This document shows, in pieces, positions 4,723-58,344 of a DNA stretch of 64,000 nucleotides. This stretch comes from a bacterium (GTDB taxonomy: Bacteria > SAR324 > XYD2-FULL-50-16 > G965216635): contig OZ244188.1 of the NCBI GenBank assembly GCA_965216635.1, forward strand, positions 136,001 through 200,000. Direction: 5' to 3'. The notes under the pieces were generated by a model. That model saw nothing but the letters and a program-made list of their open reading frames with translations, was not told where the DNA came from and made no database searches. The stretch's first letter is position 1. The number at the start of each line of letters is the position of its first letter. Position numbers and translations under genes: made by a program.

Positions 4723-4824
4723 TACCAGCTAACCTGTTTTTATGCTTCATTGATTTTACCAGCTAACCTATCTTTATGCTTCATTGATTTTGCCAGCTAA
4801 TCTGTTTTTATGCTTCATTGATTT
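4723..4824. repeat. 34-bp tandem direct repeat x3 (TTACCAGCTAACCTGTTTTTATGCTTCATTGATT); the last copy overlaps and encodes the res C-terminus (…LAGKINEA*)
   Basis: Seen directly in sequence; each unit carries the same mini reading frame MKHKNRLAGKINEA* on the minus strand. Confidence 0.7.
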
Positions 4825-11812: not shown

Positions 11813-11953
11813 AATAAAAAGTATAATTATTGTTTTTATTAAAAACACCCTAATAAACCAAAGCCTACTAATAGTAAAATAGATAATCAAGAAAAAAAAC
11901 GCTGGCAATACCTATTTGATGATTTTAAGAGCTCTTATCCTTTTAATGGATGA

Positions 11954-13491: not shown

Positions 13492-13597
13492 CAGAGTTGT
13501 TGAAAAAAATGCAAAATTCTTTTTTTTTGTTTGCTTTTAATTTTTTTTCAGTTATATTTCTAATTTTAATCTCTTCTAACTTTTATTAAATATTATT

Positions 13598-14902: not shown

Positions 14903-15009
14903 CAGAATTGTTGAAAAAAATGCAAAATTCTTTTTTTTTATTTTCTTTTTTATTTTTTTTCAGTTATATTTCTATTTTTACCTTCTTCTAACCTTTATTA
15001 AATATTATT

Positions 15010-16353
15010 ATGCAAGAAGTAACAAAAAGGGCGTTAAAAACACCTCTTAAAAATTGTGAGACAAAAGTAGCTCAGGCTGGTTTTCAATGGGCTAACCAAT
15101 GGGCTAATCAACGGGCTGGTTTTCAATGGGCTAATCAACGGGCTGGATTCCAATGGAATGGCGTTGTATTGCTAGGTGCGGTTTTGTTGAGTTTGCTATT
15201 TGTAGGTAATCTGCAAGCACAGAGCCCCAATGGAAACACAAAACAGGGATTTTTCGCGGGTATTGTTTATCTACAAGGATTCGGAGTAGATACCACAAAA
15301 ACTAGCACAAGCTCTGCTACTGGCTATGAAATCACTGGCTATTCAAATGACGAAACTAGAATAGACGCAACCTCTGGATTGTCTTATTGGGATACCCCAG
15401 CGGGGACGACAGCCGGAATTGGAGCTAGAGCTTTAATAGCGGCAAACTGTGAACGTGATGCAACAAATACTACATATCTAGGTGAAAATTATTATCTTCC
15501 AAGAAATTTCTATTTCTTCGATTCTTTTGATCCTGGTGCGAAACAGTCTTTAGCTGATATTAATAGTTCAATGAATGATGCTACTGTTACTTTTAATGAC
15601 GACACTATTTCTAGTAGAATCTTTCGTTCAGGATTGGTAGCTGGAGAAACATCCTATTGTAAAACTTACTTTGATAGCCTTCCCCAAATTAATTTTTCTG
15701 CCTATGATGTAACTCCAGATTCGCCTTCAAAACCCCCCGTCACCAGCACAGAGAGCAACGCACTCAACGGTGTTGGTCTGCAATTCGGCTGGCGAGGAGA
15801 AAAATGGAGAGCCTCCTTGACTCACTTTACTGGCAAAGGTGGAGCTAACGAGCTCGTCAATACAGTGGTGATGGCGGAGTATTTTTTTCACGAGGAGTTT
15901 TTTGTAGGAGGCGGTCTAGCGAGTATGAAGCTTACCAATGGCTCTACTAGCGCCTCGGCTACTAGTCCCGTGATCACGGTAGGCTATAAGGAGAACTTAA
16001 CTCCCAACCTATTCTTTAATATTAGCTTGACAAAGTATATCTCGGGTATTTCTCTGAGCCGTTCTACTAGTCCTACAGCTACTAACAAAACTTTTACCCG
16101 CACACAGACTGAACGCGGTAAAGATAGTCATAAAGCAACGATTGGTAGCAGAATCACAGTTCCTGCTAATCGGCAAAGCGGGGTAGGCGCTATTTTTCAA
16201 CAAGCAGCAGGTCCTGATAATAGAATAGAAGTAACCCAATTCCGCAGCAGAGATGTGGAAATAGAAGAAGTCACAACTCCAGCAACGCAGAAGATAGAAG
16301 CTGAAATCAAAGCCCCCGTAGTCGTCAGCATTTCCCTGCTGTGGCGCTTTTAA
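15010..16353 (+). CDS. Paralogous outer-membrane beta-barrel protein, copy 3 (mixed GFQWA/NQWA/NQRA repeats)
   Basis: As copy 1. Confidence 0.6.
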   Translation: MQEVTKRALKTPLKNCETKVAQAGFQWANQWANQRAGFQWANQRAGFQWNGVVLLGAVLLSLLFVGNLQAQSPNGNTKQGFFAGIVYLQGFGVDTTKTSTSSATGYEITGYSNDETRIDATSGLSYWDTPAGTTAGIGARALIAANCERDATNTTYLGENYYLPRNFYFFDSFDPGAKQSLADINSSMNDATVTFNDDTISSRIFRSGLVAGETSYCKTYFDSLPQINFSAYDVTPDSPSKPPVTSTESNALNGVGLQFGWRGEKWRASLTHFTGKGGANELVNTVVMAEYFFHEEFFVGGGLASMKLTNGSTSASATSPVITVGYKENLTPNLFFNISLTKYISGISLSRSTSPTATNKTFTRTQTERGKDSHKATIGSRITVPANRQSGVGAIFQQAAGPDNRIEVTQFRSRDVEIEEVTTPATQKIEAEIKAPVVVSISLLWRF

Positions 16354-16383
16354 TAGAGTTGTGTAGGCACCGAATCACCTAAA

Positions 16384-16521
16384 CTTTTGAATTTGCATTC
16401 TGTTTAGCCTATGCAGCGTTAAAAAAAAATTTTAACTCTTGAAATATTACATATATTCCTGCGAGCTAAAATTTTTTTTTGCCTTGCCTAGCCGTCACAT
16501 AACGCAAATTCAAAGGTCTAT
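16384..16521. mobile_element. MITE-like element inserted in the loop of the post-OMP3 hairpin (GGCACCGAATCACCTAAAC | element | ACCTAAACTCGGTGCC), with an apparent 8-bp duplication ACCTAAAC
   Basis: The uninterrupted version of the same hairpin exists on the other strand near 57005-57035; element body is >90% identical to the 59556-59699 copy. Confidence 0.65.
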
Positions 16522-16805
16522 TACCTAAACTCGGTGCCATTCAAAAAACCACCTCCCCGCCAAACCGCATCCCCTCCAAAAACACCTAAAAAAACAAAAT
16601 TGCAGGGACATTTTTTTTGCTTTTCGTGAAAACAAAAAAAACACAAAGCTCTCACTAAAAATAAACCCTTGCATTAAGTTATATTTTGGCTAAACTAGGA
16701 AAATTTTAAAAAAAGATAAAAAGTTATGTTTTTTTTGTTTGCTTTTAATTTTTTTTCAGTTATATTTCTATTTTTACCTTCTTCTAACCTTTATTAAATA
16801 TTATT

Positions 16806-18089
16806 ATGCAAGAAGTAACAAAAAGGGCGTTAAATAGCTCTCTTAAAAATTGTGAGACAAAAGTAGCTCAGGCTGGTTTTCAATGGGCTAATCAACGGGC
16901 TGGATTCCAATGGAATGGCGTTGTATTGCTAGGTGCGGTTTTGTTGAGTTTGCTATTTGTAGGTAATCTGAAAGCACAAACCCAAAATGGTTCCAATGGA
17001 AGCACAAAACAGGGATTTTTCGCTGGTATTGTCTATCTACAAGGATTCGGAGTAGATACCACAAAAAGCAGCACAAACTCTGCTACTGGCTATAGAATCA
17101 AATATTCAAACGATATTACTGGAATAGACGCAACAGGTGGGAATCATACGTTGAGCCCTTTACTTTTACTAACTAGCATCAGAGCTTTATTCAAAGAAAA
17201 CTGTGAAGAAGGAACAACGAATTTTACACAAACGGGTGGACAAGCAAATTCAAATGGAAATTACTATTTTACCAGGGATTACTTCGTATCTTTTAATGAG
17301 ATTAAGGATGCTACTGTAATAGAATTTGTAGACCCTATTGCTCGAACTAGATTTAACAATGGAAAAGTGGTAACTCATGACTCCTATTGTCGCAGGTACT
17401 TTTACGGTGATCTTTCCTCCACTAGAACCCCTATTAATCTTCCTGATCCTGATGTGACTGCAGATTCGCTTTCAAAACCCCCCGTCACCAGCACAGAGAG
17501 CGATGCACTCAACGGTATCGGTCTGCAAGTCGGCTGGCGAGGGGAAAAATGGAGAGCCTCTCTGACTCACTTCACTGGCAAAGGTGGAGCTAACGAGCTC
17601 GCCAATACAGTGGTAATGGCGGATTATTTTTTTCACGAGAAATTTTTTGCAGGAGGCGGTCTAGCGAGTATGAAGCTTACCAATGGTTCAACTAGCGCCT
17701 CGGCTACTAGCCCCGTGGTTCAAGTAGGCTATAAGGAAAACTTAACTCCCAACCTATTCTTTAATATTAGCTTGACAAAGTATATCTCGGGTATTTCTCT
17801 GAGCCGTTCTACTAATCCAGCTCCGATTCCCACTGGCGCCCCTCTTATTAGAAAAACACAGACTAAAGATGGTGATACAGTATTCATTGGAGGAACAGTT
17901 ACTAGAATTGACAGGTCGAATCAATATAACTCCTTATTTAGCAGTGTGTTAGATTCCAGAATAGAAGTAACCCAAGTCCGCAGCCGAGATGTGGAAATAC
18001 AACAAGTCACAACTCCAGCAGCGCAGAAGATAGAAGCCGAAATCAAAGCCCCCGTAGTCGTCAGCATTTCCCTGCTTTGGCGCTTTTAA
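16806..18089 (+). CDS. Paralogous outer-membrane beta-barrel protein, copy 4
   Basis: As copy 1; shares about 270-bp upstream region with copy 1. Confidence 0.6.
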   Translation: MQEVTKRALNSSLKNCETKVAQAGFQWANQRAGFQWNGVVLLGAVLLSLLFVGNLKAQTQNGSNGSTKQGFFAGIVYLQGFGVDTTKSSTNSATGYRIKYSNDITGIDATGGNHTLSPLLLLTSIRALFKENCEEGTTNFTQTGGQANSNGNYYFTRDYFVSFNEIKDATVIEFVDPIARTRFNNGKVVTHDSYCRRYFYGDLSSTRTPINLPDPDVTADSLSKPPVTSTESDALNGIGLQVGWRGEKWRASLTHFTGKGGANELANTVVMADYFFHEKFFAGGGLASMKLTNGSTSASATSPVVQVGYKENLTPNLFFNISLTKYISGISLSRSTNPAPIPTGAPLIRKTQTKDGDTVFIGGTVTRIDRSNQYNSLFSSVLDSRIEVTQVRSRDVEIQQVTTPAAQKIEAEIKAPVVVSISLLWRF

Positions 18090-18402: not shown

Positions 18403-18500
18403 CTTTTTATTTTTTGGGGCTTGACTTCACTAGAATAGTTTGCTAAAATAAAACAACCAAAATAAAATGTTAAGAAAAATAAAATGTTAAGAAAAATAAA

Positions 18501-19022
18501 ATGTTAAGAACAACTACCGCACAAAAATTTACTTCTACTAAAATCTACGATCTTTTGATTGGACTAGGTGCAGAAAAAAAGAGCGCAGAGATTGCTATTG
18601 GAGAGTTTGTAGAACTGGTCCCAAAAGCTTTGGCTTCTAGTACAACAGAAACTGGTTTGGATACCACTCTTCCTACGGACAAAGGGGATATCTGGAGATT
18701 AGAATCCATCATTTCAGACAACAAAAGCGATACAGACATAAAACTGAAAGAAATTGAGAAGGAAATAGTAAAAATCAAAAGCAACCTAAAAGAAACTATA
18801 GCAAAAACCAAAAGCGACCTAAAAGAAACTATAGCAAAAATCGAAAGCAACTTAAAAGAAACTATAGCAAAAAACAAAAGCGATACCGATTTAAAAATAG
18901 AAATGATGAGAACAGAAGCAGAAAAAAACAAAAACGCTCTATTGATTATAGGAATTTCAACACAGCTAGCAGTTGGTGGGCTGGTTGTGGCTGTATTACA
19001 GCTTTTAAAAGTTTTGACTTAA
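18501..19022 (+). CDS. Bdr-like / DUF1640-like small coiled-coil membrane protein (173 aa; C-terminal cassette …LQLLKVLT)
   Basis: Conserved N-domain MLRTTTAQKFTSTKIYDLLIGLGAEKK…, 11-aa (33-bp) tandem repeats KSDLKETIAKx, C-terminal TM helix; architecture parallels Borrelia Bdr proteins. Confidence 0.55.
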   Translation: MLRTTTAQKFTSTKIYDLLIGLGAEKKSAEIAIGEFVELVPKALASSTTETGLDTTLPTDKGDIWRLESIISDNKSDTDIKLKEIEKEIVKIKSNLKETIAKTKSDLKETIAKIESNLKETIAKNKSDTDLKIEMMRTEAEKNKNALLIIGISTQLAVGGLVVAVLQLLKVLT

Positions 19023-19110
19023 TAAAGTAGCAGAAAAGTTTAGCTTATCTGCAAAATGTATTTTGGCGAGGGGATATTTTTTGGGGGCATTGACTTTAAA
19101 AGGAGAATTT

Positions 19111-19180
19111 GCCAAAATAAGTTTGCCAAAATAAGTTTGCCAAAATAAGTTTGCCAAAATAAGTTTGCCAAAATAAGTTT
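19111..19180. repeat. 14-bp tandem repeat GCCAAAATAAGTTT x5 in the promoter region of the second Bdr-like transcription unit (downstream of TTGACT at 19090)
   Basis: Seen directly; the same repeat is present in 2 copies at 20439-20466 upstream of the next unit. Confidence 0.8.
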
Positions 19181-19251
19181 GATTGCTATGATCTTTTTAG
19201 GTAGAATTTATAAAAATAAAACAACCAGCTATAAAAACCTTTAAAAATAAA

Positions 19252-19788
19252 ATGTTAAGAACAACTACAGCACAAAAATTTACTTCTACTAAAATCTACG
19301 ATCTTTTGATTGGACTAGGTGCAGAAAAAAAGAGCGCAGAGATTGCTATTGGAGAGTTTGTAGAACTGGTCCCAAAAGCTTTGGCTTCTAGTACAACAGA
19401 AAATGGTTTGGATGTCACTCTTCCTACGGACAAAGGGGATATCTGGAGATTGGAATCCATCATTTCAGACAACAAGAACGATACAGACAGAATAATAACA
19501 GAGAACAGAAACGACCTAGAAAGAATAATAACAGACAATAAAAATGATACAGACCTAAAACTGAAAGATATTGAGAGTAAAATCGTAAAAACCAAAAGCG
19601 ACTTGATAAGAATAATAACAGACAATAAAAATGATACAGACCTGAAATTTAAGGATATAGATTTAAAAATAGAAAGGATGAGAACAGAAGTAGAAAAAAA
19701 CAAAAACGCTCTATTGATTATAGGAATTTCAACACAGCTAGCAGTTGGTGGGCTGGTTGTGGCTATTTTACAATTTTTACAAAACTAA
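19252..19788 (+). CDS. Bdr-like small coiled-coil membrane protein (178 aa; C-terminal cassette …AILQFLQN)
   Basis: Paralog family as above. Confidence 0.55.
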   Translation: MLRTTTAQKFTSTKIYDLLIGLGAEKKSAEIAIGEFVELVPKALASSTTENGLDVTLPTDKGDIWRLESIISDNKNDTDRIITENRNDLERIITDNKNDTDLKLKDIESKIVKTKSDLIRIITDNKNDTDLKFKDIDLKIERMRTEVEKNKNALLIIGISTQLAVGGLVVAILQFLQN

Positions 19789-19795
19789 AAATAAA

Positions 19796-20350
19796 ATGTT
19801 AAGAACAGCTACGACACAAAAATTTACTTCTACCAAAATCTACGATCTTTTGATTGGACTAGGTGCAGAAAAAAAGAAAGCAGAGATTGCTATTGGAGAG
19901 TTTGTAGAACTGAGACCAAAAGCTTTGGCTTCTAGTACAACAGAAACGGGTTTGGATACCACTCTTCCTACGGACAAAGGGGATATCTGGAGATTGGAAT
20001 CTATCATTTCAGAGAACAAGAACGATACAGATATAAAACTGAAAGATATTGAGAGTAAAATCGTAGAAACCAAAAGCGACCTAGAAAAAACTATAGCAAA
20101 AACCAAAAGCGACCTAGAAAAAACTATAGCAAAAATCGAAAGCAACCTAAAAGAAACTATAGCAAAAATCGAAAGCAACTTAAAAGAAACTATAGCAAAA
20201 AATAAAAGCGATACCGATTTAAAAATAGAAATGATGAGAACAGAAGTAGAAAAAAACAAAAACGCTTTATTGATTATAGGAATTTCAACACAGCTAGCAG
20301 TTGGTGGGCTGGTTGTGGCTGCATTACAGCTTTTAAAAGTTTTGACTTAA
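19796..20350 (+). CDS. Bdr-like small coiled-coil membrane protein (184 aa from MLRTATTQ; ORF-track start 19745 is an extension into the upstream gene). Separated by only 7 bp from the upstream paralog
   Basis: Paralog family as above. Confidence 0.55.
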   Translation: MLRTATTQKFTSTKIYDLLIGLGAEKKKAEIAIGEFVELRPKALASSTTETGLDTTLPTDKGDIWRLESIISENKNDTDIKLKDIESKIVETKSDLEKTIAKTKSDLEKTIAKIESNLKETIAKIESNLKETIAKNKSDTDLKIEMMRTEVEKNKNALLIIGISTQLAVGGLVVAALQLLKVLT

Positions 20351-20438
20351 TAAAGTAGCAGAAAAGTTTAGCTTATCTGCAAAATGTATTTTGGTGAGGG
20401 GATATTTTTTTGGGGCATTGACTTTAAAAGGAGAATTT

Positions 20439-20466
20439 GCCAAAATAAGTTTGCCAAAATAAGTTT
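20439..20466. repeat. 14-bp tandem repeat GCCAAAATAAGTTT x2 (same promoter context as 19111-19180)
   Basis: Seen directly. Confidence 0.8.
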
Positions 20467-20536
20467 GATTGCTATGATGTTTTTAGTAGAATTTATAAAA
20501 ATAAAACAACCAAAATAAAAACTTTTAAAAAATAAA

Positions 20537-21106
20537 ATGTTAAGAACAACTACAGCACAAAACTTTACTTCTACTAAAATCTACGATCTTTTGATTGGAC
20601 TAGGTGCAGAAAAAAAGAAAGCAGAGATTGCTATTGGAGAGTTTGTAGAACTGAGACCAAAAGCTTTGGCTTCTAGTACAACAGAAACTGGTTTGGATGT
20701 CACTCTTCCTACGGACAAAGGGGATATCTGGAGATTGGAATCTATCATTTCAGAGAACAAGAACGATACAGATATAAAACTGAAAGATATTGAGAGTAAA
20801 ATCGTAGAAACCAAAAGTAACCTAGAAAAAATAATAACAGAAAACAGAAACGACCTAGAAAAAATAATAACAAAAAACAGAAACGACCTAGAAAAAATAA
20901 TAACAGACAACAGAAACGACCTAGAAAGAATAATAACAGACAATAAAAATGATACAGACCTGAAATTTAAGGATATAGATTTAAAAATAGAAAGGATGAG
21001 AACAGAAGTAGAAAAAAACAAAAACGCTCTGTTATTCTGGGGTGTGACAGCCCAGCTGACTATTGGTGGGTTGGTTGTGACTATACTACAATTTTTACAA
21101 AACTAA
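20537..21106 (+). CDS. Bdr-like small coiled-coil membrane protein (189 aa; C-terminal cassette …LLFWGVTAQLTIGGLVVTILQFLQN)
   Basis: Paralog family as above. Confidence 0.55.
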   Translation: MLRTTTAQNFTSTKIYDLLIGLGAEKKKAEIAIGEFVELRPKALASSTTETGLDVTLPTDKGDIWRLESIISENKNDTDIKLKDIESKIVETKSNLEKIITENRNDLEKIITKNRNDLEKIITDNRNDLERIITDNKNDTDLKFKDIDLKIERMRTEVEKNKNALLFWGVTAQLTIGGLVVTILQFLQN

Positions 21107-21113
21107 AAATAAA

Positions 21114-21617
21114 ATGTTAAGAACAACTACAGCACAAAACTTTACTTCTACTAAAATCTACGATCTTTTGATTGGACTAGGTGCGGAAAAAAAGAAAGCA
21201 GAGATTGCTATTGGAGAGTTTGTAGAACTGAGACCAAAAGCTTTGGCTTCTAGTGCAGCAAAAACGGGTTTGGATACCACTCTTCCTACGGACAAAGGGG
21301 ATATCTGGAGATTGGAATCTATCATTTCAGAGAACAAGAACGATACAGATATAAAACTGAAAGATATTGAGAGTAAAATCGTAGAAACCAAAAGTAACCT
21401 AGAAAGAATAATAACAGACAACAGAAACGATCTAGAAAGAATAATAACAGACAATAAAAATGATACAGACCTGAAATTTAAGGATATAGATTTAAAAATA
21501 GAAAGGATGAGAACAGAAGTAGAAAAAAACAAAAACGCTCTATTGATTATAGGAATTTCAACACAGCTAGCAGTTGGTGGGCTGGTTGTGACTATACTAC
21601 AATTTTTACAAAACTAG
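21114..21617 (+). CDS. Bdr-like small coiled-coil membrane protein (167 aa)
   Basis: Paralog family as above. Confidence 0.55.
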   Translation: MLRTTTAQNFTSTKIYDLLIGLGAEKKKAEIAIGEFVELRPKALASSAAKTGLDTTLPTDKGDIWRLESIISENKNDTDIKLKDIESKIVETKSNLERIITDNRNDLERIITDNKNDTDLKFKDIDLKIERMRTEVEKNKNALLIIGISTQLAVGGLVVTILQFLQN

Positions 21618-36632: not shown

Positions 36633-38285
36633 CTACTCTATTCGCCAAGTTTTGACTGCGATTTCAGCTAATTTTACTTGTCTAGAATTGATTTCTGCAA
36701 GTTTCCATTCTGTATAATTTTCAATATTACGATTGATAGAATATTTACTTTTAAGCAGGATCTTTTTTTTTTTTTCAAAGTCTTCTTGACCTGGATTTTC
36801 TTTGCTTGGTAATAAAGCCATATTGCCTAATCTTTGATTGCATTGCCCCCAATCATTTCCAAAATAATCTATCCATTCTTCTTGTGGGTTAAGAGGCAAA
36901 ATATGCTCTACTGTTAGATCTGTTTCACTAATGTTTTTTTTACTCTCAAATTCTTCTAATCTTGCCAATAGATAGCAAGCTCTCTTATTAGATTTTTTTG
37001 TAGGCATTACCTTTTCCTCAAAGTTCTGCTTAAAAATTTTATCGTTTGGATAAAGTGTTAATAATTTTTCTTTTACAGCATCAATTTTACAGCCTTTGGT
37101 AATAGCAACACAAATATCATTATAAAGAATTTCTTGTTCACCTGAATGTCCTCGACCAATTATATTGTAGCGTAAAGATAAAACACAAACCCATTCCAAG
37201 ATAATGTGAAAATCCTGTTTAAATTTCAAATAGCTTGCAAGTAATAGACTAATAGGCTTGCGAACACCAAATAAATGTAAGAATGAAATATTTTTTTTAA
37301 TCTTTCCAACTTGTTGATTAATCTTGTAGTCTTTCCAAAACTCACTATTTTCACTTACTAAAGCTCCATATAGATAACAGTCTGCAACAAGTTTATTGAG
37401 ATATTCATCCGACTGTTCTTTTTGCTGGATTTCTTGCCTGATGGCTCTAAATAGATGATTTTGACGCACCAGTTTATGATGATTATTCCAGTGAGCTAAT
37501 ATATATTCTGTATAGCTTTTTCCCGAAATATTTGCTCCTATTTTTTCCCATTTTTCATCCCATTCGTCCAAAATATTATCAGGGGTATCCCCCTCATCAT
37601 CAATTTTAGAAAATAGATAATTTTTTAATAAATCAGCAGAGGAAAGTTTTACCCCTCTTGCGTTGAGAGTTTCAAATATCTTGTAAGCATTAAGTTCATC
37701 TCCTATGTAAAGTGTTGTAAAAAACATTCTATTTGTCATTTTATTAACTAGACTGCTAATTTTTTCTCCTTCACTAATAGCAGCAAATTTTTCACTAAAA
37801 AAATCTATTGATTTTCTCATCAAACTCACAGTTTCTTTTACATTTCGTCTGGGGATTTCGTTTTCGTCTACTGCACTGCGGTAGTGATAATCATTATTAC
37901 GATTGAGCTTTAGTTTGTTTTCTACACGTAAATAGACTAAATCTTTCGTACCAATAAAGTTTTTTAGTAGCTCGTCTGCTCGTTCTTTGTCATCGATTTT
38001 TTTCAGTCTTTTAATGGCTGCTAAAATCAATAAAGAAAAGGTAGTTAATCGCTGTTGCCCATCAATCACTTTGTAGAAACGTTCTTCTGTTTCTTCTAAT
38101 ACAAGATAGCCCATATAATGATACTCTTCTTCAGAATTAACAAGCTCTATATCTTCCCATAAATCTCTCCAATGTTCATTTTCCCAAGAATAGTCTCTTT
38201 GAAATTTTGGAACTAAGTATTTTTTACCATTGCCAAATATATCTCTCAGACTCTCATCTTTAGGATTAACTATTACTTTTGGCAT
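36633..38285 (-). CDS. GmrSD-like Type IV restriction endonuclease (DUF262 ParB-like N-domain + DUF1524 His-Me finger C-domain)
   Basis: N-terminal FQRDYSWE…DGQQRLTT (DUF262 signature), C-terminal EHILP…N…H-type HNH-like motif (DUF1524); 550 aa. Confidence 0.7.
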   Translation of the reverse strand: MPKVIVNPKDESLRDIFGNGKKYLVPKFQRDYSWENEHWRDLWEDIELVNSEEEYHYMGYLVLEETEERFYKVIDGQQRLTTFSLLILAAIKRLKKIDDKERADELLKNFIGTKDLVYLRVENKLKLNRNNDYHYRSAVDENEIPRRNVKETVSLMRKSIDFFSEKFAAISEGEKISSLVNKMTNRMFFTTLYIGDELNAYKIFETLNARGVKLSSADLLKNYLFSKIDDEGDTPDNILDEWDEKWEKIGANISGKSYTEYILAHWNNHHKLVRQNHLFRAIRQEIQQKEQSDEYLNKLVADCYLYGALVSENSEFWKDYKINQQVGKIKKNISFLHLFGVRKPISLLLASYLKFKQDFHIILEWVCVLSLRYNIIGRGHSGEQEILYNDICVAITKGCKIDAVKEKLLTLYPNDKIFKQNFEEKVMPTKKSNKRACYLLARLEEFESKKNISETDLTVEHILPLNPQEEWIDYFGNDWGQCNQRLGNMALLPSKENPGQEDFEKKKKILLKSKYSINRNIENYTEWKLAEINSRQVKLAEIAVKTWRIE

Positions 38286-52775: not shown

Positions 52776-52872
52776 ATGCCTGATTTTATTTGTGGGAGGG
52801 GATGCAGTTTTTAGGTGGTTTTTGGTGGGGATACGGTTTTTTGATGGGTTTTGACGCGGAGGTATTTTATGT

Positions 52873-53451
52873 TTATGCTGCCACTTTTAAAAATTGTAAC
52901 AATCCAAATATTATAACAATCAATATACCCGTGCTGGTTAGAGTAGTCGCAATAACCCATTTGATTATATGAACTCTACTTTCTGATATTTTTAACTCAA
53001 GGTCGCTTTTGATTTTTGCTATAGTTTCTTTTAGGTTGCTTTTGGTTTCTACGATTTTACTCTCAATATCTTTCAGTTTTAGGTCTGTATCATTTTTATT
53101 GTCTGTTATTATTTTTTCTAGGTCGTTTCTGTTTTTTGTTATTATTTTTTCTAGGTCGTTTCTGTTTTTTGTTATTATTTTTTCTGTATCGTTTTTGTTG
53201 TCTGCTATTATTCTTATCAAGTCGTTTTTGTTCTCTGAAATGATGGATTCCAATCTCCAGATATCGCCTTTGTCCGTAGGAAGAGTGGTATCCAAACCCG
53301 TTTCTGTTGTACTAGAAGCCAAAGCTTTTGGGACCAGTTCTACAAACTCTCCAATAGCAATCTCTGCGCTCTTTTTTTCTGCACCTAGTCCAATCAAAAG
53401 ATCGTAGATTTTAGTAGAAGTAAATTTTTGTGCTGTAGTTGTTCTTAACAT
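52873..53451 (-). CDS. Bdr-like small coiled-coil membrane protein (192 aa; third C-terminal cassette …ESRVHIIKWVIATTLTSTGILIVIIFGLLQFLKVAA)
   Basis: Paralog family; N-domain identical to cluster-1 genes. Confidence 0.55.
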   Translation of the reverse strand: MLRTTTAQKFTSTKIYDLLIGLGAEKKSAEIAIGEFVELVPKALASSTTETGLDTTLPTDKGDIWRLESIISENKNDLIRIIADNKNDTEKIITKNRNDLEKIITKNRNDLEKIITDNKNDTDLKLKDIESKIVETKSNLKETIAKIKSDLELKISESRVHIIKWVIATTLTSTGILIVIIFGLLQFLKVAA

Positions 53452-53458
53452 TTTATTT

Positions 53459-53962
53459 TTAGTTTTGTAAAAATTGCAGTATAGTCACAACCAACCCACC
53501 AACTGCTAACTGGACTGACACACCCCAAAATAATAAAGAGTTTTTATTTTTTTCTGCTTCTGTTCTCATCCTTTCTATTTTTAAATCTATATCCTTAAAT
53601 TTCAGGTCTGTATCGCTTTTGATTTTTGCTATAGTTTCTTTTAGGTCGCTTTTGTTTTTTTCTGCTTCTGTTCTCATCTTTTCTATTTTCAAATCGGTAT
53701 CGTTTTTGTTGTCTGCTATTATTCTTATCAAGTCGTTTTTGTTCTCTGAAATGATGGATTCCAATCTCCAGATATCGCCTTTGTCCGTAGGAAGAGTGGT
53801 ATCCAAACCAGTTTCTGTTGTACTAGAAGCCAAAGCTTTTGGGACCAGTTCTACAAACTCTCCAATAGCAATCTCTGCGCTCTTTTTCTCCGCACCTAGT
53901 CCAATCAAAAGATCGTAGATTTTAGTAGAAGTAAATTTTTGTGCTGTAGTTGTTCTTAACAT
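53459..53962 (-). CDS. Bdr-like small coiled-coil membrane protein (167 aa)
   Basis: Paralog family; identical protein to 54502-55005. Confidence 0.55.
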   Translation of the reverse strand: MLRTTTAQKFTSTKIYDLLIGLGAEKKSAEIAIGEFVELVPKALASSTTETGLDTTLPTDKGDIWRLESIISENKNDLIRIIADNKNDTDLKIEKMRTEAEKNKSDLKETIAKIKSDTDLKFKDIDLKIERMRTEAEKNKNSLLFWGVSVQLAVGGLVVTILQFLQN

Positions 53963-53969
53963 TTTATTT

Positions 53970-54494
53970 TTAGTTTTGTAAAAATTGCAATATAGTCACA
54001 ACCAACCCACCAACTGCTAACTGGACTGACACACCCCAAAATAATAAAGAGTTTTTATTTTTTTCTGCTTCTGTTCTCATCCTTTCTATTTTTAAATCTA
54101 TATCCTTAAATTTCAGGTCTGTATCGCTTTTGATTTTTGCTATAGTTTCTTTTAGTTCGCTTTTGTTTTTTTCTGCTTCTGTTCTCATCTTTTCTATTTT
54201 CAAATCGGTATCGCTTTTGCTTTCTATTATTTTTCCCTCAATTTCTTTCAGTTTTATGTCTGTATCGTTTTTGTTCTCTGAAATGATGGATTCCAATCTC
54301 CAGATATCGCCTTTGTCCGTAGGAAGAGTGGTATCCAAACCAGTTTCTGTTGTACTAGAAGCCAAAGCTTTTGGGACCAGTTCTACAAACTCTCCAATAG
54401 CAATCTCTGCGCTCTTTTTTTCTGCACCTAGTCCAATCAAAAGATCGTAGATTTTAGTAGAAGTAAATTTTTGTGCTGTAGTTGTTCTTAACAT
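53970..54494 (-). CDS. Bdr-like small coiled-coil membrane protein (174 aa)
   Basis: Paralog family; 1-aa difference from 55013-55537. Confidence 0.55.
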   Translation of the reverse strand: MLRTTTAQKFTSTKIYDLLIGLGAEKKSAEIAIGEFVELVPKALASSTTETGLDTTLPTDKGDIWRLESIISENKNDTDIKLKEIEGKIIESKSDTDLKIEKMRTEAEKNKSELKETIAKIKSDTDLKFKDIDLKIERMRTEAEKNKNSLLFWGVSVQLAVGGLVVTILQFLQN

Positions 54495-54501
54495 TTTATT
54501 T

Positions 54502-55005
54502 TTAGTTTTGTAAAAATTGCAGTATAGTCACAACCAACCCACCAACTGCTAACTGGACTGACACACCCCAAAATAATAAAGAGTTTTTATTTTTTTCTGC
54601 TTCTGTTCTCATCCTTTCTATTTTTAAATCTATATCCTTAAATTTCAGGTCTGTATCGCTTTTGATTTTTGCTATAGTTTCTTTTAGGTCGCTTTTGTTT
54701 TTTTCTGCTTCTGTTCTCATCTTTTCTATTTTCAAATCGGTATCGTTTTTGTTGTCTGCTATTATTCTTATCAAGTCGTTTTTGTTCTCTGAAATGATGG
54801 ATTCCAATCTCCAGATATCGCCTTTGTCCGTAGGAAGAGTGGTATCCAAACCAGTTTCTGTTGTACTAGAAGCCAAAGCTTTTGGGACCAGTTCTACAAA
54901 CTCTCCAATAGCAATCTCTGCGCTCTTTTTTTCTGCACCTAGTCCAATCAAAAGATCGTAGATTTTAGTAGAAGTAAATTTTTGTGCTGTAGTTGTTCTT
55001 AACAT
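54502..55005 (-). CDS. Bdr-like small coiled-coil membrane protein (167 aa)
   Basis: Paralog family. Confidence 0.55.
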   Translation of the reverse strand: MLRTTTAQKFTSTKIYDLLIGLGAEKKSAEIAIGEFVELVPKALASSTTETGLDTTLPTDKGDIWRLESIISENKNDLIRIIADNKNDTDLKIEKMRTEAEKNKSDLKETIAKIKSDTDLKFKDIDLKIERMRTEAEKNKNSLLFWGVSVQLAVGGLVVTILQFLQN

Positions 55006-55012
55006 TTTATTT

Positions 55013-55537
55013 TTAGTTTTGTAAAAATTGCAGTATAGTCACAACCAACCCACCAACTGCTAACTGGACTGACACACCCCAAAATAATAAAGAGTTTTTA
55101 TTTTTTTCTGCTTCTGTTCTCATCCTTTCTATTTTTAAATCTATATCCTTAAATTTCAGGTCTGTATCGCTTTTGATTTTTGCTATAGTTTCTTTTAGTT
55201 CGCTTTTGTTTTTTTCTGCTTCTGTTCTCATTTTTTCTATTTTCAAATCGGTATCGCTTTTGCTTTCTATTATTTTTCCCTCAATTTCTTTCAGTTTTAT
55301 GTCTGTATCGTTTTTGTTCTCTGAAATGATGGATTCCAATCTCCAGATATCCCCTTTGTCCGTAGGAAGAGTGGTATCCAAACCAGTTTCTGTTGTACTA
55401 GAAGCCAAAGCTTTTGGGACCAGTTCTACAAACTCTCCAATAGCAATCTCTGCGCTCTTTTTTTCTGCACCTAGTCCAATCAAAAGATCGTAGATTTTAG
55501 TAGAAGTAAATTTTTGTGCTGTAGCTGTTCTTAACAT
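55013..55537 (-). CDS. Bdr-like small coiled-coil membrane protein (174 aa)
   Basis: Paralog family. Confidence 0.55.
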   Translation of the reverse strand: MLRTATAQKFTSTKIYDLLIGLGAEKKSAEIAIGEFVELVPKALASSTTETGLDTTLPTDKGDIWRLESIISENKNDTDIKLKEIEGKIIESKSDTDLKIEKMRTEAEKNKSELKETIAKIKSDTDLKFKDIDLKIERMRTEAEKNKNSLLFWGVSVQLAVGGLVVTILQFLQN

Positions 55538-55631
55538 TTTACTTTTATAAGGTTTTTATTTTGGTTATTTTATTTGGTTGTTTTATTTTAGCAAACTATT
55601 CTACTAAAGTCAAGCCCAAAAAAATAAAAAG

Positions 55632-55637
55632 ATTATA
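55632..55637 (-). promoter_or_regulatory. Putative -10 box (TATAAT on minus strand) of the 5-gene Bdr-like transcription unit, inside the conserved promoter module
   Basis: Reverse complement of 55625-55690 matches the 18360-18410 module upstream of array 1. Confidence 0.35.
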
Positions 55638-55737
55638 GGGAAAAAATTAAAAAAATGTCCCCTGCAATTTTGTTTTTTAGTGGGTTTTGAGGGGGACGCA
55701 GTTTTTAGGTGGGTTTTGACGGGGAGGTATTTTATGT

Positions 55738-56238
55738 TTATGCTACCACTTTTAAGAATTGTAACAATCCAAATATTATAACAATCAATATACCCGTACT
55801 GGTTAGAGTAGTCGCAATAACCCATTTGATTATATGAACTCTACTTTCTGATATTTTTAACTCAAGGTCGCTTTTGATTTTTGCTATAGTTTCTTTTAGG
55901 TCGCTTTTGTTTTTTTCTGCTTCTGTTCTCATCTTTTCTATTTTCAAATCGGTATCGCTTTTGCTTTCTATTATTTTTCCCTCAATTTCTTTCAGTTTTA
56001 TGTCTGTATCGTTTTTGTTCTCTGAAATGATGGATTCCAATCTCCAGATATCCCCTTTGTCCGTAGGAAGAGTGGTATCCAAACCAGTTTCTGTTGTACT
56101 AGAAGCCAAAGCTTTTGGGACCAGTTCTACAAACTCTCCAATAGCAATCTCTGCGCTCTTTTTTTCTGCACCTAGTCCAATCAAAAGATCGTAGATTTTA
56201 GTAGAAGTAAAGTTTTGTGCTGTAGTTGTTCTTAACAT
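55738..56238 (-). CDS. Bdr-like small coiled-coil membrane protein (166 aa; third C-terminal cassette)
   Basis: Paralog family. Confidence 0.55.
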   Translation of the reverse strand: MLRTTTAQNFTSTKIYDLLIGLGAEKKSAEIAIGEFVELVPKALASSTTETGLDTTLPTDKGDIWRLESIISENKNDTDIKLKEIEGKIIESKSDTDLKIEKMRTEAEKNKSDLKETIAKIKSDLELKISESRVHIIKWVIATTLTSTGILIVIIFGLLQFLKVVA

Positions 56239-56245
56239 TTTACTT

Positions 56246-56803
56246 TTAGTTTTGTAAAAATTGCAATATAGTCACAACCAACCCACCAACTGCTAACTGG
56301 ACTGACACACCCCAAAATAATAAAGAGTTTTTATTTTTTTCTGCTTCTGTTCTCATCCTTTCTATTTTTAAATCTATATCCTTAAATTTCAGGTCTGTAT
56401 CGCTTTTGATTTTTGCTATAGTTTCTTTTAGGTTGCTTTCGATTTTTGCTATAGTTTCTTTTAGTTCGCTTTTGTTTTTTTCTGCTTCTGTTCTCATCTT
56501 TTCTATTTTCAAATCGGTATCGCTTTTGCTTTCTATTATTTTTCCCTCAATTTCTTTCAGTTTTATGTCTGTATCGCTTTTGTTGTCTGAAATGATGGCT
56601 TCCAATCTCCAGATATCCCCTTTGTCCGTAGGAAGAGTGGTATCCAAACCAGTTTCTGTTGTACTAGAAGCCAAAGCTTTTGGGACCAGTTCTACAAACT
56701 CTCCAATAGCGATCTCTGCTTTCTTTTTTTCTGCACCTAGTCCAATCAAAAGATCGTAGATTTTAGTAGAAGTAAATTTTTGTGCTGTAGTTGTTCTTAA
56801 CAT
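56246..56803 (-). CDS. Bdr-like small coiled-coil membrane protein (185 aa)
   Basis: Paralog family. Confidence 0.55.
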   Translation of the reverse strand: MLRTTTAQKFTSTKIYDLLIGLGAEKKKAEIAIGEFVELVPKALASSTTETGLDTTLPTDKGDIWRLEAIISDNKSDTDIKLKEIEGKIIESKSDTDLKIEKMRTEAEKNKSELKETIAKIESNLKETIAKIKSDTDLKFKDIDLKIERMRTEAEKNKNSLLFWGVSVQLAVGGLVVTILQFLQN

Positions 56804-56897
56804 TTTACTTTTATAAGGTTTTTATTTTGGTTATTTTATTTGGTTGTTTTATTTTAGCAAATTGTCCTATTAAAGTCAAGTTCTAAAAAATAAAAAG

Positions 56898-56903
56898 ATT
56901 ATA
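56898..56903 (-). promoter_or_regulatory. Putative -10 box (TATAAT on minus strand) of the 2-gene Bdr-like transcription unit, same conserved module
   Basis: Sequence conservation with 18360-18410 and 55625-55690. Confidence 0.35.
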
Positions 56904-57087
56904 GGGAAAAAATTAAAAAAATGTCCCCTGCAATTTTGTTTTTTTAGTGGGTTTTGGTGGGGAGGTGGTTTTTTGAGGGGCACCGAATTTAGGTGATTCG
57001 GTGCCTCTGCAGAATGTTATCAGTTTTTTGAGGGGCACCGAGAGTTCACTTCTTTTTTAGTGGATTTCTCGGTGCCTCTAAATTCTG

Positions 57088-58344
57088 TTAAAAGCGCCAC
57101 AGCAGGGAAATGCTGACGACTACGGGGGCTTTGATTTCGGCTTCTATCTTCTCCGTTGCTGGAGTTTCAACTTCTTGTATTTCCACATCTCTTGTGCCGA
57201 CTTGGGTTGCTTGTATTCTATTATCGTTTTCCTCGCTGAGGTACAGCAGACCTAATGTATTATATGTGCCACACGGCGAAATATTGCAAATACGCGTTCC
57301 TATCGTGACTGAATCACCACCTTCTCCGGACTGTGTTTCGCTAAAAGTTCTGCCAGTGGGAATCGGAGCAGAAACTGTACGGTTTAGAGAAATACCCGAG
57401 ATATACTTTGTCAAGCTAATATTAAAGAATAGGTTGGGAGTTAAGTTCTCCTTATAGCCTACCGTTAACACGGGACTAGTAGCCGAGGCGCTAGTTGAGC
57501 CATTGGTAAGCTTCATACTCGCTAGACCGCCTCCTGCAAAAAACTCCTCGTGAAAAAAATACTCCGCCATCACCACTGTATTGACGAGCTCGTTAGCTCC
57601 ACCCTTGCCAGTAAAGTGAGTCAGAGAGGCTCTCCATTTTTCTCCTCGCCAGCCGAATTGCAGACCGACACCGTTGAGTGCGTCGCTCTCTGTGCTAGTG
57701 ACGGGGGATTTTGAAAGCGAATCTGGAGTCGCTATCTCATAGGCAGAAAAACTAATAGTGGTTCTGTTGGAGGAATCATCACCGAAAAAATAGCTAAAAC
57801 AAACGGATGTTTTTTCGTCTTTACCATTATATATGTTACCTGGAGAGTCTGTAGTTCCTTCATTAGACGACTTTGTGCCTTCATTAAAGGATTGGAAACT
57901 ATCACTTCTAAAATAATAGTCTGTTCCCTTTGAATCAACAGATGCTTTGCCTTCTTTACAGGTTGCGGTCATTAAAGCGCTTATTCCAGCCATTACTGCT
58001 GGACTGTGAGACGATCTTATTTTAGTAATTTCTATTCCAATGGTTTCGTTTGAATAGGTTACTCCATAGCTAGTAGAAGAGCTTGTGCTAGTTTTTGTGG
58101 TATCTACTCCGAAACCTTGTAGATAGACAATACCAGCAAAAAATCCCTGTTTCGTGCTAGCGCTGCTCTGTGCTTGCAGATTACCTACAAATAACAAACT
58201 CAACAAAACCGCACCTAGCAATACAACGCCATTCCATTGGAAGCTAGCCCGTTGAAAACTCGCCCGTTGAAAACCTGCCTGAGCTACTTTTGTCTCACAA
58301 TTTTTAAGAGGTGTTTTTAACGTTCTTTTTGTTACTTCTTGCAT
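57088..58344 (-). CDS. Paralogous outer-membrane beta-barrel protein, copy 5 (minus-strand counterpart of the 12238-18089 family)
   Basis: Same N-terminal MQEVTKRTLKTPLKNCETKVAQ… extension with GFQRA/SFQRA repeats and C-terminal …VVVSISLLWRF; shares upstream region (58345-58460) with copies 1 and 4. Confidence 0.6.
   Translation of the reverse strand: MQEVTKRTLKTPLKNCETKVAQAGFQRASFQRASFQWNGVVLLGAVLLSLLFVGNLQAQSSASTKQGFFAGIVYLQGFGVDTTKTSTSSSTSYGVTYSNETIGIEITKIRSSHSPAVMAGISALMTATCKEGKASVDSKGTDYYFRSDSFQSFNEGTKSSNEGTTDSPGNIYNGKDEKTSVCFSYFFGDDSSNRTTISFSAYEIATPDSLSKSPVTSTESDALNGVGLQFGWRGEKWRASLTHFTGKGGANELVNTVVMAEYFFHEEFFAGGGLASMKLTNGSTSASATSPVLTVGYKENLTPNLFFNISLTKYISGISLNRTVSAPIPTGRTFSETQSGEGGDSVTIGTRICNISPCGTYNTLGLLYLSEENDNRIQATQVGTRDVEIQEVETPATEKIEAEIKAPVVVSISLLWRF

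Follow-up and report, generated by a model that had tools for sequence, protein, structure and literature searches.

The proteins described so far that come closest to those considered here belong to the DUF1640/CCDC90-like superfamily (human MCUR1 and CCDC90B, yeast Fmp32, prokaryotic homologues, and the structures 6H9M and 6H9L). Within about 150-190 residues they combine a head and neck with a parallel coiled-coil stalk and a C-terminal transmembrane (TM) anchor, with non-heptad (11-residue) stalk repeats and the motif 'R-x-E…K…(L/I)-(L/K)-W-h-h-G' leading into the membrane segment. At the start of the stalk, DUF1640 proteins carry a beta-layer motif, [aliphatic]-A-T-K-[polar]-[DE] (PMC4786415). 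Another system with a comparable build is Bdr of Borrelia, a group of multi-copy proteins of ~20 kDa with a conserved N-terminus, variable 11-residue repeats and a C-terminal hydrophobic anchor, whose single genes are scattered on plasmids and prophages beside mlp or replication loci (PMC10016077). An 18-kDa antigen of B. miyamotoi also carries a DUF1640 protein annotation (PMC6856195).

The beta-layer motif apart, the features of build listed for both systems are shared by a set of proteins encoded in a 64,000-nucleotide stretch of bacterial DNA, referred to below as the window. The locus at 52873-56803 is probably best explained as a chromosomal tandem array of seven tail-anchored DUF1640/CCDC90-like paralogs that has been shaped by recombination. 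Unlike bdr, the window genes form chromosomal head-to-tail arrays with 7-nt spacers, and they are found in a different kind of host, a Shine-Dalgarno-poor (SD-poor) organism with Mla, MsbA and xdh genes. They also differ from other DUF1640/CCDC90-like genes, which occur as one or a few per genome, whereas the source genome has at least 26 paralogs in tandem arrays, with exchangeable stalk cassettes and a link to an outer-membrane-like (OMP-like) family.

Organisation of the locus

Seven minus-strand paralogs had been called in this interval by an earlier note made from the sequence, and all seven open reading frames were located exactly where it had placed them. They are listed here with the neighbouring features (array 2 comprises B1 to B7).

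12238-18089, plus strand: four tandem OMP-like paralogs (417, 434, 447 and 427 aa), directly upstream of array 1
18501-21617, plus strand: array 1, five paralogs (173 / 178, 184 / 189, 167 aa) in three promoter-headed units
52807-52872, minus strand: downstream C/A-rich module, shared with the sequence after B2
52873-53451, minus strand: B7, 192 aa, last gene in unit 2, with an alternative tail (…LQFLKVAA)
53222-55547, no strand: full extent of the tandem repeat of period 1043, 2.23 copies, enclosing the interval 53459-55544 of the earlier note
53459-53962, minus strand: B6, 167 aa
53970-54494, minus strand: B5, 174 aa, differing from B3 by T5A only
54502-55005, minus strand: B4, 167 aa, protein identical to B6
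55013-55537, minus strand: B3, 174 aa, opens unit 2
55538-55737, minus strand: inter-unit spacer, with the downstream module (as 52807-52872) followed by the promoter module (as 56804-56950)
55738-56238, minus strand: B2, 166 aa, last gene in unit 1, with an alternative membrane tail IIKWVIATTLTSTGILIVIIFGLLQFLKVVA
56246-56803, minus strand: B1, 185 aa, in unit 1, with a QN-type tail
56804-56980, minus strand: module preceding unit 1, alignable with both the B2-B3 spacer and the region 5' of array 1
57088-58344, minus strand: OMP-like partner gene, 418 aa, directly upstream of array 2

The gap between genes is fixed at 7 nt (TAA AAATAAA ATG), and the final gene of each unit (B2 and B7) carries the alternative membrane tail. 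The coding end of this tail, together with the C/A-rich downstream module, forms a repeat (D4) whose two copies are 93% identical.

An upstream module of ~150 nt with TTGACT-17-(TG)TAAAAT heads B1 (as TTGACT-17-TGnTAAAAT, 56879-56851) and B3 (as TTGACT-17-TAAAAT, 55613-55585); the same module is present 5' of the first gene of array 1, and promoters in array 2 are found at unit heads only. Each unit would be driven by this same promoter, of the sigma-70 type with an extended -10 element. The region 56804-56980 further contains a C/A-rich motif, a weak hairpin with a T7 tract, an A-rich leader of unit 1 from which a Shine-Dalgarno motif is absent, and a second promoter-like site, GGGACA-18-TATAAT at 56927-56898. 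There is no canonical intrinsic terminator between the two units, where the sole hairpin with a U-tract is weak (-11.5 kcal/mol, z = -1.7). The earlier proposal of two transcription units, each with the conserved promoter module, is therefore sound as regards the promoter before each unit, but the division into two is based on the second promoter and not on demonstrated termination, since no canonical terminator separates them. Together with the recombination described below, this would yield co-expressed anchor proteins that keep a single constant head while their stalks vary in length.

Family assignment and relation to Bdr

Profile comparison places the array proteins in the DUF1640/CCDC90-like (MCUR1/CCDC90B) superfamily, which is represented by PF07798, as a divergent clade confined to its lineage. 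None of the window paralogs reaches the PF07798 gathering threshold (33.5 bits), the best being B7 with 26.2 bits while the others score 14-21 or have no match; a precomputed PF07798 flag is present on three family members in the source genome. When the family profile was run exhaustively against 1.84 billion representative proteins, its weak full-length matches were genuine PF07798 members (39-73 bits), and the comparison of the family with these members by hhalign gave a probability of 98.7% and E = 2.5e-16 over 162 columns that include head, stalk and anchor. The same PF07798 members, taken as an intermediate set, match the CCDC90B structure 6H9M (E = 1.9e-6) and its prokaryotic homologue 6H9L; the family profile compared directly with PDB sequences has no match. 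The head, FTSTKIYDLLIGLGAEKKxAEIAIGEF, occurs in about 15 of the 1.84 billion representative proteins. At the place of the beta-layer, all window paralogs have an invariant L-P-T-D-K-G-D and so depart from the DUF1640 motif: PTDKGD stands instead of ATKxD, after a linker of ~15 residues. The canonical A-A-T-K-K-D was found in P0035, a distant paralog from the same genome, and in P0051.

The term 'Bdr-like' used in the earlier note is apt for architecture and superfamily, but the KID-repeat model is missed and there is no direct similarity to Bdr. At E <= 0.1, the KID repeat PF02524 matches none of eight window paralogs, while BdrA of cp32-1 matches it at E = 8.6e-21 with 5 repeats. A tblastn search of B7 against 72,556 plasmid records gave no Borrelia match at E <= 10, and hhalign of the family against BdrA gave a non-significant 13.6% probability, with only repeat aligned to repeat. 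The intermediate PF07798 set, on the other hand, aligns with BdrA at 96% probability and E = 4.2e-9, with the head included. On the strength of these profile alignments we accept that Bdr also joins the DUF1640/CCDC90-like superfamily, and that the array proteins are its distant cousins.

It could be asked whether these are true Bdr genes, or belong to a module carried by phages or plasmids and akin to the bdr of Borrelia cp32, as both have the same general build (~20 kDa, conserved N-terminus, 11-residue repeats, hydrophobic C-terminus), and both the window family and BdrA weakly match phrog_6701 and phrog_9415. We regard this as extremely unlikely, because in addition to the three negative comparisons above, a scan for viral contigs and a PADLOC run both found nothing, and the array lies among housekeeping genes of the chromosome (pta, pheT, icd and dapA, with hisS and mlaFD also in the window). 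Bdr membership is thus largely refuted, with the KID model, tblastn, direct hhalign and the chromosomal location all against it.

Architecture of the array proteins

The proposed plan of the proteins would comprise a 45-residue helical-hairpin head, a short linker and neck, a long helix, and a C-terminal transmembrane segment. The AF2 monomer model, which has no significant fold match, contains helices at residues 3-21 and 26-45, a disordered linker and one helix at 61-173. The long helix would be assembled from a small vocabulary of 11- and 18-residue (7+11) cassettes with a hydrophobic periodicity of 3.6-3.67 residues. In 46 family sequences, 108 eleven-residue and 56 eighteen-residue units were counted, and the hydropathy power equals 737 at period 3.6, 646 at 3.67 and 62 at 3.5. 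The stalk of B7 has four 11-residue cassettes in succession, and a 33-nt tandem repeat lies at 53104-53232.

A single C-terminal hydrophobic maximum of 19 residues (1.8-2.3) is followed by 0-8 residues, and the hydropathy profiles of the family proteins contain no N-terminal hydrophobic segment or signal peptide. Since there is no signal peptide, and since the flank N-terminal to the TM segment is rich in lysine, we infer a cytoplasmic location for both head and stalk. If they behave like CCDC90B, the proteins would probably assemble into parallel trimers and hold the head some 11-15 nm away from the inner membrane. A trimeric coiled coil would fit the periodicity of 3.6-3.67 residues but is not proven by it, and the structure prediction is that of a monomer only. 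Speaking against this picture, nothing physical obviously explains why a cytoplasmic stalk should be linked to an outer-membrane-like protein.

Origin of the two-gene repeat

Tandem paralogs shaped by unequal crossover and gene conversion are exemplified by the lipoprotein (lpl) cluster of Staphylococcus aureus. There, too, paralogs with a conserved 5' part lie head to tail, and recombination between neighbours gives changes in copy number and chimeras; however, the proteins are unrelated and use other export routes, and the window genes vary in length through the 11- and 18-residue stalk cassettes.

The earlier claim that 53459-54501 is repeated at 54502-55544 was borne out, with 1036 of 1043 positions identical (99.33%), seven substitutions and no indels, and so were the claims that the two 167-aa proteins (B4 and B6) are identical and that the 174-aa proteins (B3 and B5) differ by one residue, T5A. 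The differences had also been said to lie in the intergenic part, which is not the case: six of the seven are coding (five synonymous and T5A), and only 54499/55542 is intergenic. The 192-aa gene contributes its head as a third, incomplete copy, which brings the whole tract to 2.23 copies. At the 5' end of B3, whose head is of the 'first-gene' type common to B1 and B2, three of the seven differences lie close together, namely those at the intergenic site and at codons 5 and 62. The 567 nt of stalk and tail in the repeat hold only 2 differences, whereas other like-for-like pairs are 86-97% identical. As the identity is contiguous and the pairs elsewhere are this much less alike, a single duplication is the simplest origin of the tract.

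Mis-assembly is typical of tracts such as this one, with 99.3% repeats over 2.3 kb, in which the repeat could have been expanded or a longer array collapsed. An error of this sort seems very unlikely here, since the copies differ by seven substitutions with no homopolymer indels, and several of the variant states are common to other paralogs, as would be expected of real distinct copies; differences of this kind argue against a duplicate made by the assembler. Additionally, the source is a single 2.39-Mb contig, which implies that a stretch of 2.3 kb was within reach of the assembly.

Both the array and the two-gene repeat are most readily put down to non-allelic homologous recombination. The first ~230 nt of every array-2 gene are 97-100% identical within the array, and these near-identical starts, together with the 33-/54-nt stalk repeats, make the array a substrate for such recombination. 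The 1043-bp repeat would have come from unequal crossover between head-coding segments, while stalk length would be altered by slippage and exchange of cassettes. The reconstruction is imperfect, because head site 153 is G in B7 and T in B5, so that a later change or conversion in B7 is needed.

Gene conversion, acting inside the array and between it and array 1, probably keeps heads and tails alike. Across all 12 paralogs of the two arrays, which lie 35 kb apart, head identity is 93-100% and variants are shared in a mosaic manner, and in the four-gamete test on the 225-nt head, 55 of the 105 informative site pairs show all four gametes. In stalk and tail, B1 and B5 have 0 mismatches in 294 positions, apart from one extra 33-nt cassette in B1 (LKETIAKIESN), and B3 and B5 have 2 in 294, so B1 of the other unit is closer to B5 than B3 is. 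Codon 169 is TTG in B5 and B1, and CTG in B3, B4 and B6. Such mosaic sharing shows what appears to be ongoing unequal crossover and gene conversion.

The same data could be read as concerted evolution, in which an old duplication (or one of several) was kept near-identical by gene conversion. This would agree with the likeness of heads within array 2 and to those of array 1, with the failed four-gamete pairs and with the sharing of body and codon 169 by B5 and B1 across units, but it accords less well with an unbroken 1043-nt identity that takes in two unlike stalks as well as two tails and the spacers, and as the main explanation we find it rather improbable. It is not mutually exclusive with a single duplication. 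The paralog array and its highly similar two-gene repeat described in the earlier note stand, but its 'very recent tandem amplification' is not supported as worded, because mosaic sharing means that this is not the sole reading; since gene conversion keeps copies alike, identity is a poor clock and cannot be used to place one recent event in time. The copy-number dynamics are deduced from sequence patterns alone, in the single genome for the species.

The OMP-like partner family

OMP-like genes adjoin family genes in both window arrays. All OMP-like members have a signal-peptide-like N-terminus and a terminal Phe; PF13505 matches only 2 of 26 members (best E = 1.6e-5), the family has no match among PDB sequences, and the AF2 model has a pLDDT of 27.8. 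The source genome contains at least 43 OMP-like paralogs beside its 26 or more stalk-protein genes, and 22 family clusters (90% identity) are found on one contig of 2,394,643 bp, which also carries 42 OMP-like clusters and the query's own. The adjacency of the two families recurs in a 64%-identical relative (loci L002, L006, L007, L010 and L012), and the relatives' family genes likewise have a conserved TTGACT module of their own.

Large families of this kind (at least 26 and at least 43 paralogs), stalks built from cassettes, promoters confined to unit heads, and tandem repeats of 14 nt and 17 nt in the leaders of array 1 could bring to mind programmed antigenic or phase variation, with silent or alternative cassettes being recombined or switched so that a surface structure is altered, together with the OMP-like family. 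We consider this quite unlikely. All copies are intact open reading frames that each begin with a separate start codon and keep the fixed 7-nt spacer, and hence no copy looks like a silent cassette; surface exposure is itself unlikely given the missing signal peptide and the C-terminal anchor; and no recombinase, invertible element or long homopolymer tract was seen in or beside the array.

Returning to an array shaped by recombination, a tentative and still somewhat doubtful proposal is that an SD-poor, low-GC Gram-negative lineage co-amplified the OMP-like and the tail-anchored stalk families, both orphan envelope families, as a linked module. In the source genome, the stalk-protein member would have been expanded further, into polycistronic arrays where recombining 11- and 18-residue cassettes give graded stalk lengths on a constant head. 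If the pairing is functional, the stalk proteins could act, for example, as inner-membrane partners, rulers or scaffolds in the biogenesis or regulation of specific outer-membrane paralogs, and the pairing would then give a first hint, from genome data, at what the Bdr/MCUR1/DUF1640 superfamily does in bacteria.

Structure of the Array

The seven minus-strand open reading frames listed in the earlier note were found at the positions it gave, and five more paralogs form a second array (array 1) on the plus strand, so named below.

Features of the two arrays
56803–56246, minus strand, B1, ORF of 185 aa
56238–55738, minus strand, B2, ORF of 166 aa
55537–55013, minus strand, B3, ORF of 174 aa
55005–54502, minus strand, B4, ORF of 167 aa
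54494–53970, minus strand, B5, ORF of 174 aa
53962–53459, minus strand, B6, ORF of 167 aa
53451–52873, minus strand, B7, ORF of 192 aa
18501–21617, plus strand, array 1, five paralogs in three units
56879–56851 (B1) and 55613–55585 (B3), minus strand, promoter-like TTGACT-17-TGnTAAAAT within a ~150-nt module
52807–53048 and 55672–55913, repeat D4 (alternative tail plus C/A-rich module), 93% identity
53104–53232 and 56400–56480, 33-nt tandem repeats

The interval 53459–54501 recurs at 54502–55544 with 1036 of 1043 nt identical and substitutions only; as had been reported, the two 167-aa proteins (B4 and B6) are identical and the two 174-aa proteins (B3 and B5) differ by one residue, which is T5A. 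The differences had been placed in the intergenic part, which has to be corrected, since six of the seven fall within genes (five synonymous, one non-synonymous) and only one is intergenic. The interval itself stands, but identity at period 1043 reaches further (53222–55547): with the first 230 nt of B7 as a third, partial copy, it amounts to 2.23 copies.

Inside every paralog of both arrays there is an open frame of 99–132 aa on the opposite strand, in the seven-gene array at 53009–53407, 53619–53918, 54130–54450, 54662–54961, 55173–55493, 55874–56194 and 56406–56759 (plus strand). The simplest view of such frames is that they are no genes and arise as a side effect of sense codons rich in Lys/Glu/Asn and poor in stops.

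Origin of the Repeat

The best explanation of the 1043-bp repeat is that the constant head-coding blocks recombined by unequal crossover, with gene conversion in addition. In an ancestor of the order P-174-167-192, a misaligned exchange between the 192-type head and the 174-type head would give exactly P-174-167-174-167-192, and B5, as the new 174 copy, would inherit a head of the downstream type and the 7-nt spacer. Three of the seven differences follow from this exchange: B3 retains the promoter-type states (leader, GCT at codon 5, GGG at codon 62), and B5 has those of B4, B6 and B7. The fit is imperfect, as head site 153 is G in B7 and T in B5.

Gene conversion, layered on unequal crossover, would keep the copies alike. 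All four gametes occur at 55 of 105 informative-site pairs in the 225-nt head (12 paralogs, both arrays), and codon 169 is TTG in B5 and B1, and CTG in B3, B4 and B6. Leaving aside one inserted 33-nt cassette, the stalk and tail of B1, which belongs to the other unit, show 0/294 differences from B5, while B3 and B5 show 2/294. Slippage of 33-nt cassettes, for which the 33-nt tandem repeats offer a basis, would be a third recombination route. Other like-for-like pairs are 86–97% identical in stalk and tail, so nowhere is the array as homogeneous as in the 174/167 repeat.

The earlier note had read the near-identity as a very recent amplification or an assembly hot-spot. The near-identical repeat and its probable origin by unequal crossover agree with amplification, but identity is not readable as age because conversion is active, as the four-gamete pairs and the shared body of B1 and B5 indicate. 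It seems unlikely that an assembly error lies behind the duplication.

Expression Signals

Within a unit, the spacer between genes is always the same 7 nt (TAA-AAATAAA-ATG), and the ~150-nt module, which also holds a second, weaker site (GGGACA-18-TATAAT), is common to the regions upstream of B1, B3 and array 1. The last gene of each unit (B2, B7) has a different membrane tail, IIKWVIATTLTSTGILIVIIFGLLQFLKVxA, followed by a common C/A-rich module. Of the two proposed transcription units (B1–B2 and B3–B7), the second promoter is well supported but termination of the first is not, since no canonical intrinsic terminator was found in the array and the one inter-unit hairpin with a U7 tract is weak (−11.5 kcal/mol, z = −1.7), no more stable than shuffled sequence.

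The Shine-Dalgarno motif is absent from the array genes and also from 23 of the 25 other window genes, and is therefore missing as a trait of the organism; across the whole window, only 2/25 annotated gene starts have AGGA, GGAG or GAGG in the 20 nt before the start codon. By and large the organism is Shine-Dalgarno-independent, a possible clue to its phylum.

Several small repeats accompany these regions. The internal promoters of array 1 (~19108–19177 and ~20436–20463, plus strand) overlap in their −10 region with a 14-nt tandem repeat, TTTGCCAAAATAAG, present in five copies before gene A2 and two before gene A4 of that array, so the two leaders differ by 42 nt in length. A 17-nt tandem repeat, ATAAAATGTTAAGAAAA, triplicates the start of the first array 1 gene (~18463–18513, plus strand), giving ATGs at 18467, 18484 and 18501, the first two of which open 7-codon mini-ORFs (MLRKIKC*). 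Between an OMP-like gene and the promoter of the seven-gene array, at ~56975–57078 (minus strand reading), stand two REP-like palindromes, GGCACCGA(N)…TCGGTGCC, with CCTCAAAAAAC after each; as both lack a U-tract behind them, they do not qualify as canonical terminators.

Protein Architecture

All 12 window paralogs have a near-invariant N-terminus of 75 residues, a variable centre and a C-terminal hydrophobic segment. Across 46 family sequences, 11-residue units (108 instances, e.g., LEKIITKNRND, LKETIAKIKSD) and 18-residue (7+11) units (56 instances, e.g., TDIKLKEIEGKIIESKSD) are strung together to form the centre, in an arrangement that differs from paralog to paralog. Hydropathy power of the stalk is strong at 3.6–3.67 residues (18/5, 11/3) and almost nil at the heptad value of 3.5. 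The AF2 monomer (pLDDT 76) has a helical hairpin (3–21 and 26–45), a disordered linker and a single helix (61–173); a Foldseek search of this model gave nothing significant, such a search being uninformative for a single long helix.

Only one stretch of 19 residues is strongly hydrophobic; it sits at the extreme C-terminus, with 0–8 residues beyond it, and no N-terminal hydrophobic segment appeared in the hydropathy scan of the paralogs. We infer that the proteins are tail-anchored with a cytoplasmic head and stalk, because there is no signal peptide and the flank N-terminal of the TM segment is Lys-rich. As a working model, in which trimer and topology are both conjectural, the array would encode stalks that are co-expressed, trimeric and anchored in the inner membrane, graded in length and presenting one constant head.

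Family Membership and Relation to Borrelia Bdr

Direct annotation was limited to sub-threshold Pfam matches to PF07798 (CCDC90-like, formerly DUF1640; best score 26.2 bits, cut-off 33.5), and NCBIfam gave nothing beyond weak, sub-threshold coiled-coil matches. When the family profile was run exhaustively with HMMER against 1.84 billion representative proteins, it returned only 107 proteins at E ≤ 1e-3, of which only ~15 cover the head; the weaker full-length matches are genuine PF07798 members (39–73 bits). In profile-profile comparison, the stalk-family alignment matched a set of ten such members with 98.7% probability (E = 2.5e-16, 162 columns across head, stalk and anchor). That set also matches sequences of known structure, namely the CCDC90B head-stalk construct 6H9M (E = 1.9e-6) and its prokaryotic homologue 6H9L; the family profile itself had no match among PDB sequences. 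From these two steps, the array family is, as judged by profiles, a divergent, lineage-restricted clade of the MCUR1/CCDC90B/DUF1640 superfamily. The beta-layer motif that defines DUF1640 at the stalk base, [aliphatic]-A-T-K-[polar]-[DE] (PMC4786415), is replaced in the window paralogs by an invariant LPTDKGD, although P0035, a distant paralog of the source genome, retains AATKKD.

The label "Bdr-like" is apt for the architecture, as Bdr also has a constant N-terminus, 11-residue repeats, a membrane tail and many paralogs, but not for family membership. The bdr gene of B. burgdorferi B31 cp32-1 (L005 22131–22763) matches the KID repeat model PF02524 at 8.6e-21, and no window paralog matches that model at E ≤ 0.1; tblastn of B7 against 72,556 plasmids found no Borrelia sequence at E ≤ 10, and hhalign of the window paralogs against BdrA gave 13.6% probability. 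Thus they are not members of the Bdr family. The DUF1640 set, by contrast with the window paralogs, matches BdrA with 96% probability (hhalign, E = 4.2e-9, head included). One DUF1640 member, P0118, carries LDxKIDRVHHE repeats. DUF1640 is also the annotation given to an 18-kDa antigen of B. miyamotoi (PMC6856195). As the array family and Bdr match the same genuine DUF1640 proteins, the profiles suggest parallel offshoots of one superfamily, and they likewise suggest that Bdr belongs in the MCUR1/CCDC90B superfamily, a link for which a literature check of small extent found no statement. Bdr proteins are inner-membrane associated, and their function is not known (PMC10016077).

Two other identities were rejected: a phage origin (just weak PHROG matches of unknown function, no relatives in IMG/VR) and a defence system (only coiled-coil noise from PADLOC, LeoC/LeoBC, E > 1e-3).

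The OMP-like Partner Family

Both arrays directly follow, on the same strand, genes of an orphan OMP-like family (proteins of ~400–480 aa).

OMP-like genes, and a module of the relative
57088–58344, minus strand, OMP-like gene upstream of the seven-gene array
12238–18089, plus strand, four tandem OMP-like genes upstream of array 1
L010 8868–13559 and L014 916–3336, TP_0789-like/554-aa/MMPL module

The four tandem genes are 67–71% identical to the single one, and the source genome holds 42 further OMP-like clusters (at least 43 paralogs). Every member has a signal-like hydrophobic segment and a terminal Phe; PF13505 (OMP beta-barrel) is reached weakly, at 1.6e-5, by 2/26 members, the AF2 model was unusable (pLDDT 27.8) and the profile had no match in the PDB. 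In a 64%-identical relative, an OMP-like homologue adjoins a stalk gene in L002, L006, L007 (both sides), L010 and L012; these homologues are 44–49% identical over the full length (E down to 1e-97), and a more divergent subfamily is also present. Adjacency in both window arrays and five loci of the relative means that the linkage is conserved across species and repeated within genomes. It may reflect function or co-duplication as a segment; how a cytoplasmic stalk would physically link to an outer-membrane protein is not obvious, and within the working model the link to this partner is likewise an assumption drawn from adjacency.

Several stalk genes of the relative are followed by genes for a TP_0789-like protein (LolA-like, PF17131), a 554-aa orphan and an MMPL transporter, a module absent beside the window arrays.

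Distribution and Genome Context

A search of 5.8 billion protein clusters placed 22 stalk-family clusters on the source contig (2,394,643 bp); nine of them lie in the window and, with duplicates, the source genome has at least 26 stalk-family genes. Outside the source, that search found the family only in one ENA metagenome lineage (~64% identity), also present as NCBI MAG GCA_014238815.1. No relative was found in GTDB species genomes with a single protein, in JGI metagenomes with the stalk-family alignment, or in IMG/VR with the family alignment. The relative has one stalk gene per OMP-like gene and the source has stalk gene arrays of five and seven; the source lineage has massively expanded the stalk family together with the OMP-like family. 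Many contigs of the related metagenome (ENA ERZ26869290; L001, L009, L010, L012, L014) are internally inverted-duplicated, with genes mirrored around the centre, an arrangement that resembles fold-back artefacts of assembly and makes copy numbers from this sample untrustworthy.

The window is otherwise an ordinary Gram-negative chromosome (xdhAB, msbA-like, hisS, pheT, icd, pta, dapA, mlaFD) with one tRNA gene. A Type III restriction-modification pair (4808–10308, minus strand) has apparently been inserted into the xanthine dehydrogenase operon, between xdhB (2415–4697) and xdhA (10313–11908). A GmrSD-type restriction endonuclease gene (GmrSD_N + GmrSD_C; 36633–38285, minus strand) adjoins hisS; it is a further defence gene, unrelated to the arrays.

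The restriction-modification pair
4808–7849, minus strand, res, ResIII/REase_III
7840–10308, minus strand, mod, MTase_III (E = 1e-269)

Conclusions

The region is a tandem array prone to recombination, and its genes encode stalk proteins of the DUF1640 superfamily that are predicted to be tail-anchored and are distant cousins of Bdr. It illustrates cleanly how unequal crossover and gene conversion together shape tandem arrays whose 5' block is constant, and it cautions that near-identity inside such arrays is no date for a duplication. DUF1640/MCUR1-type proteins are conserved from bacteria to mitochondria, to our knowledge with no bacterial function known for the head-stalk-anchor design, and the Bdr proteins of Borrelia have been studied for 25 years; computed evidence now connects both the array family and Bdr to genuine PF07798 members. 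The stalk-length variants on one head are a natural series and a ready-made structure-function panel, and the conserved genomic partner suggests a testable envelope-related role.
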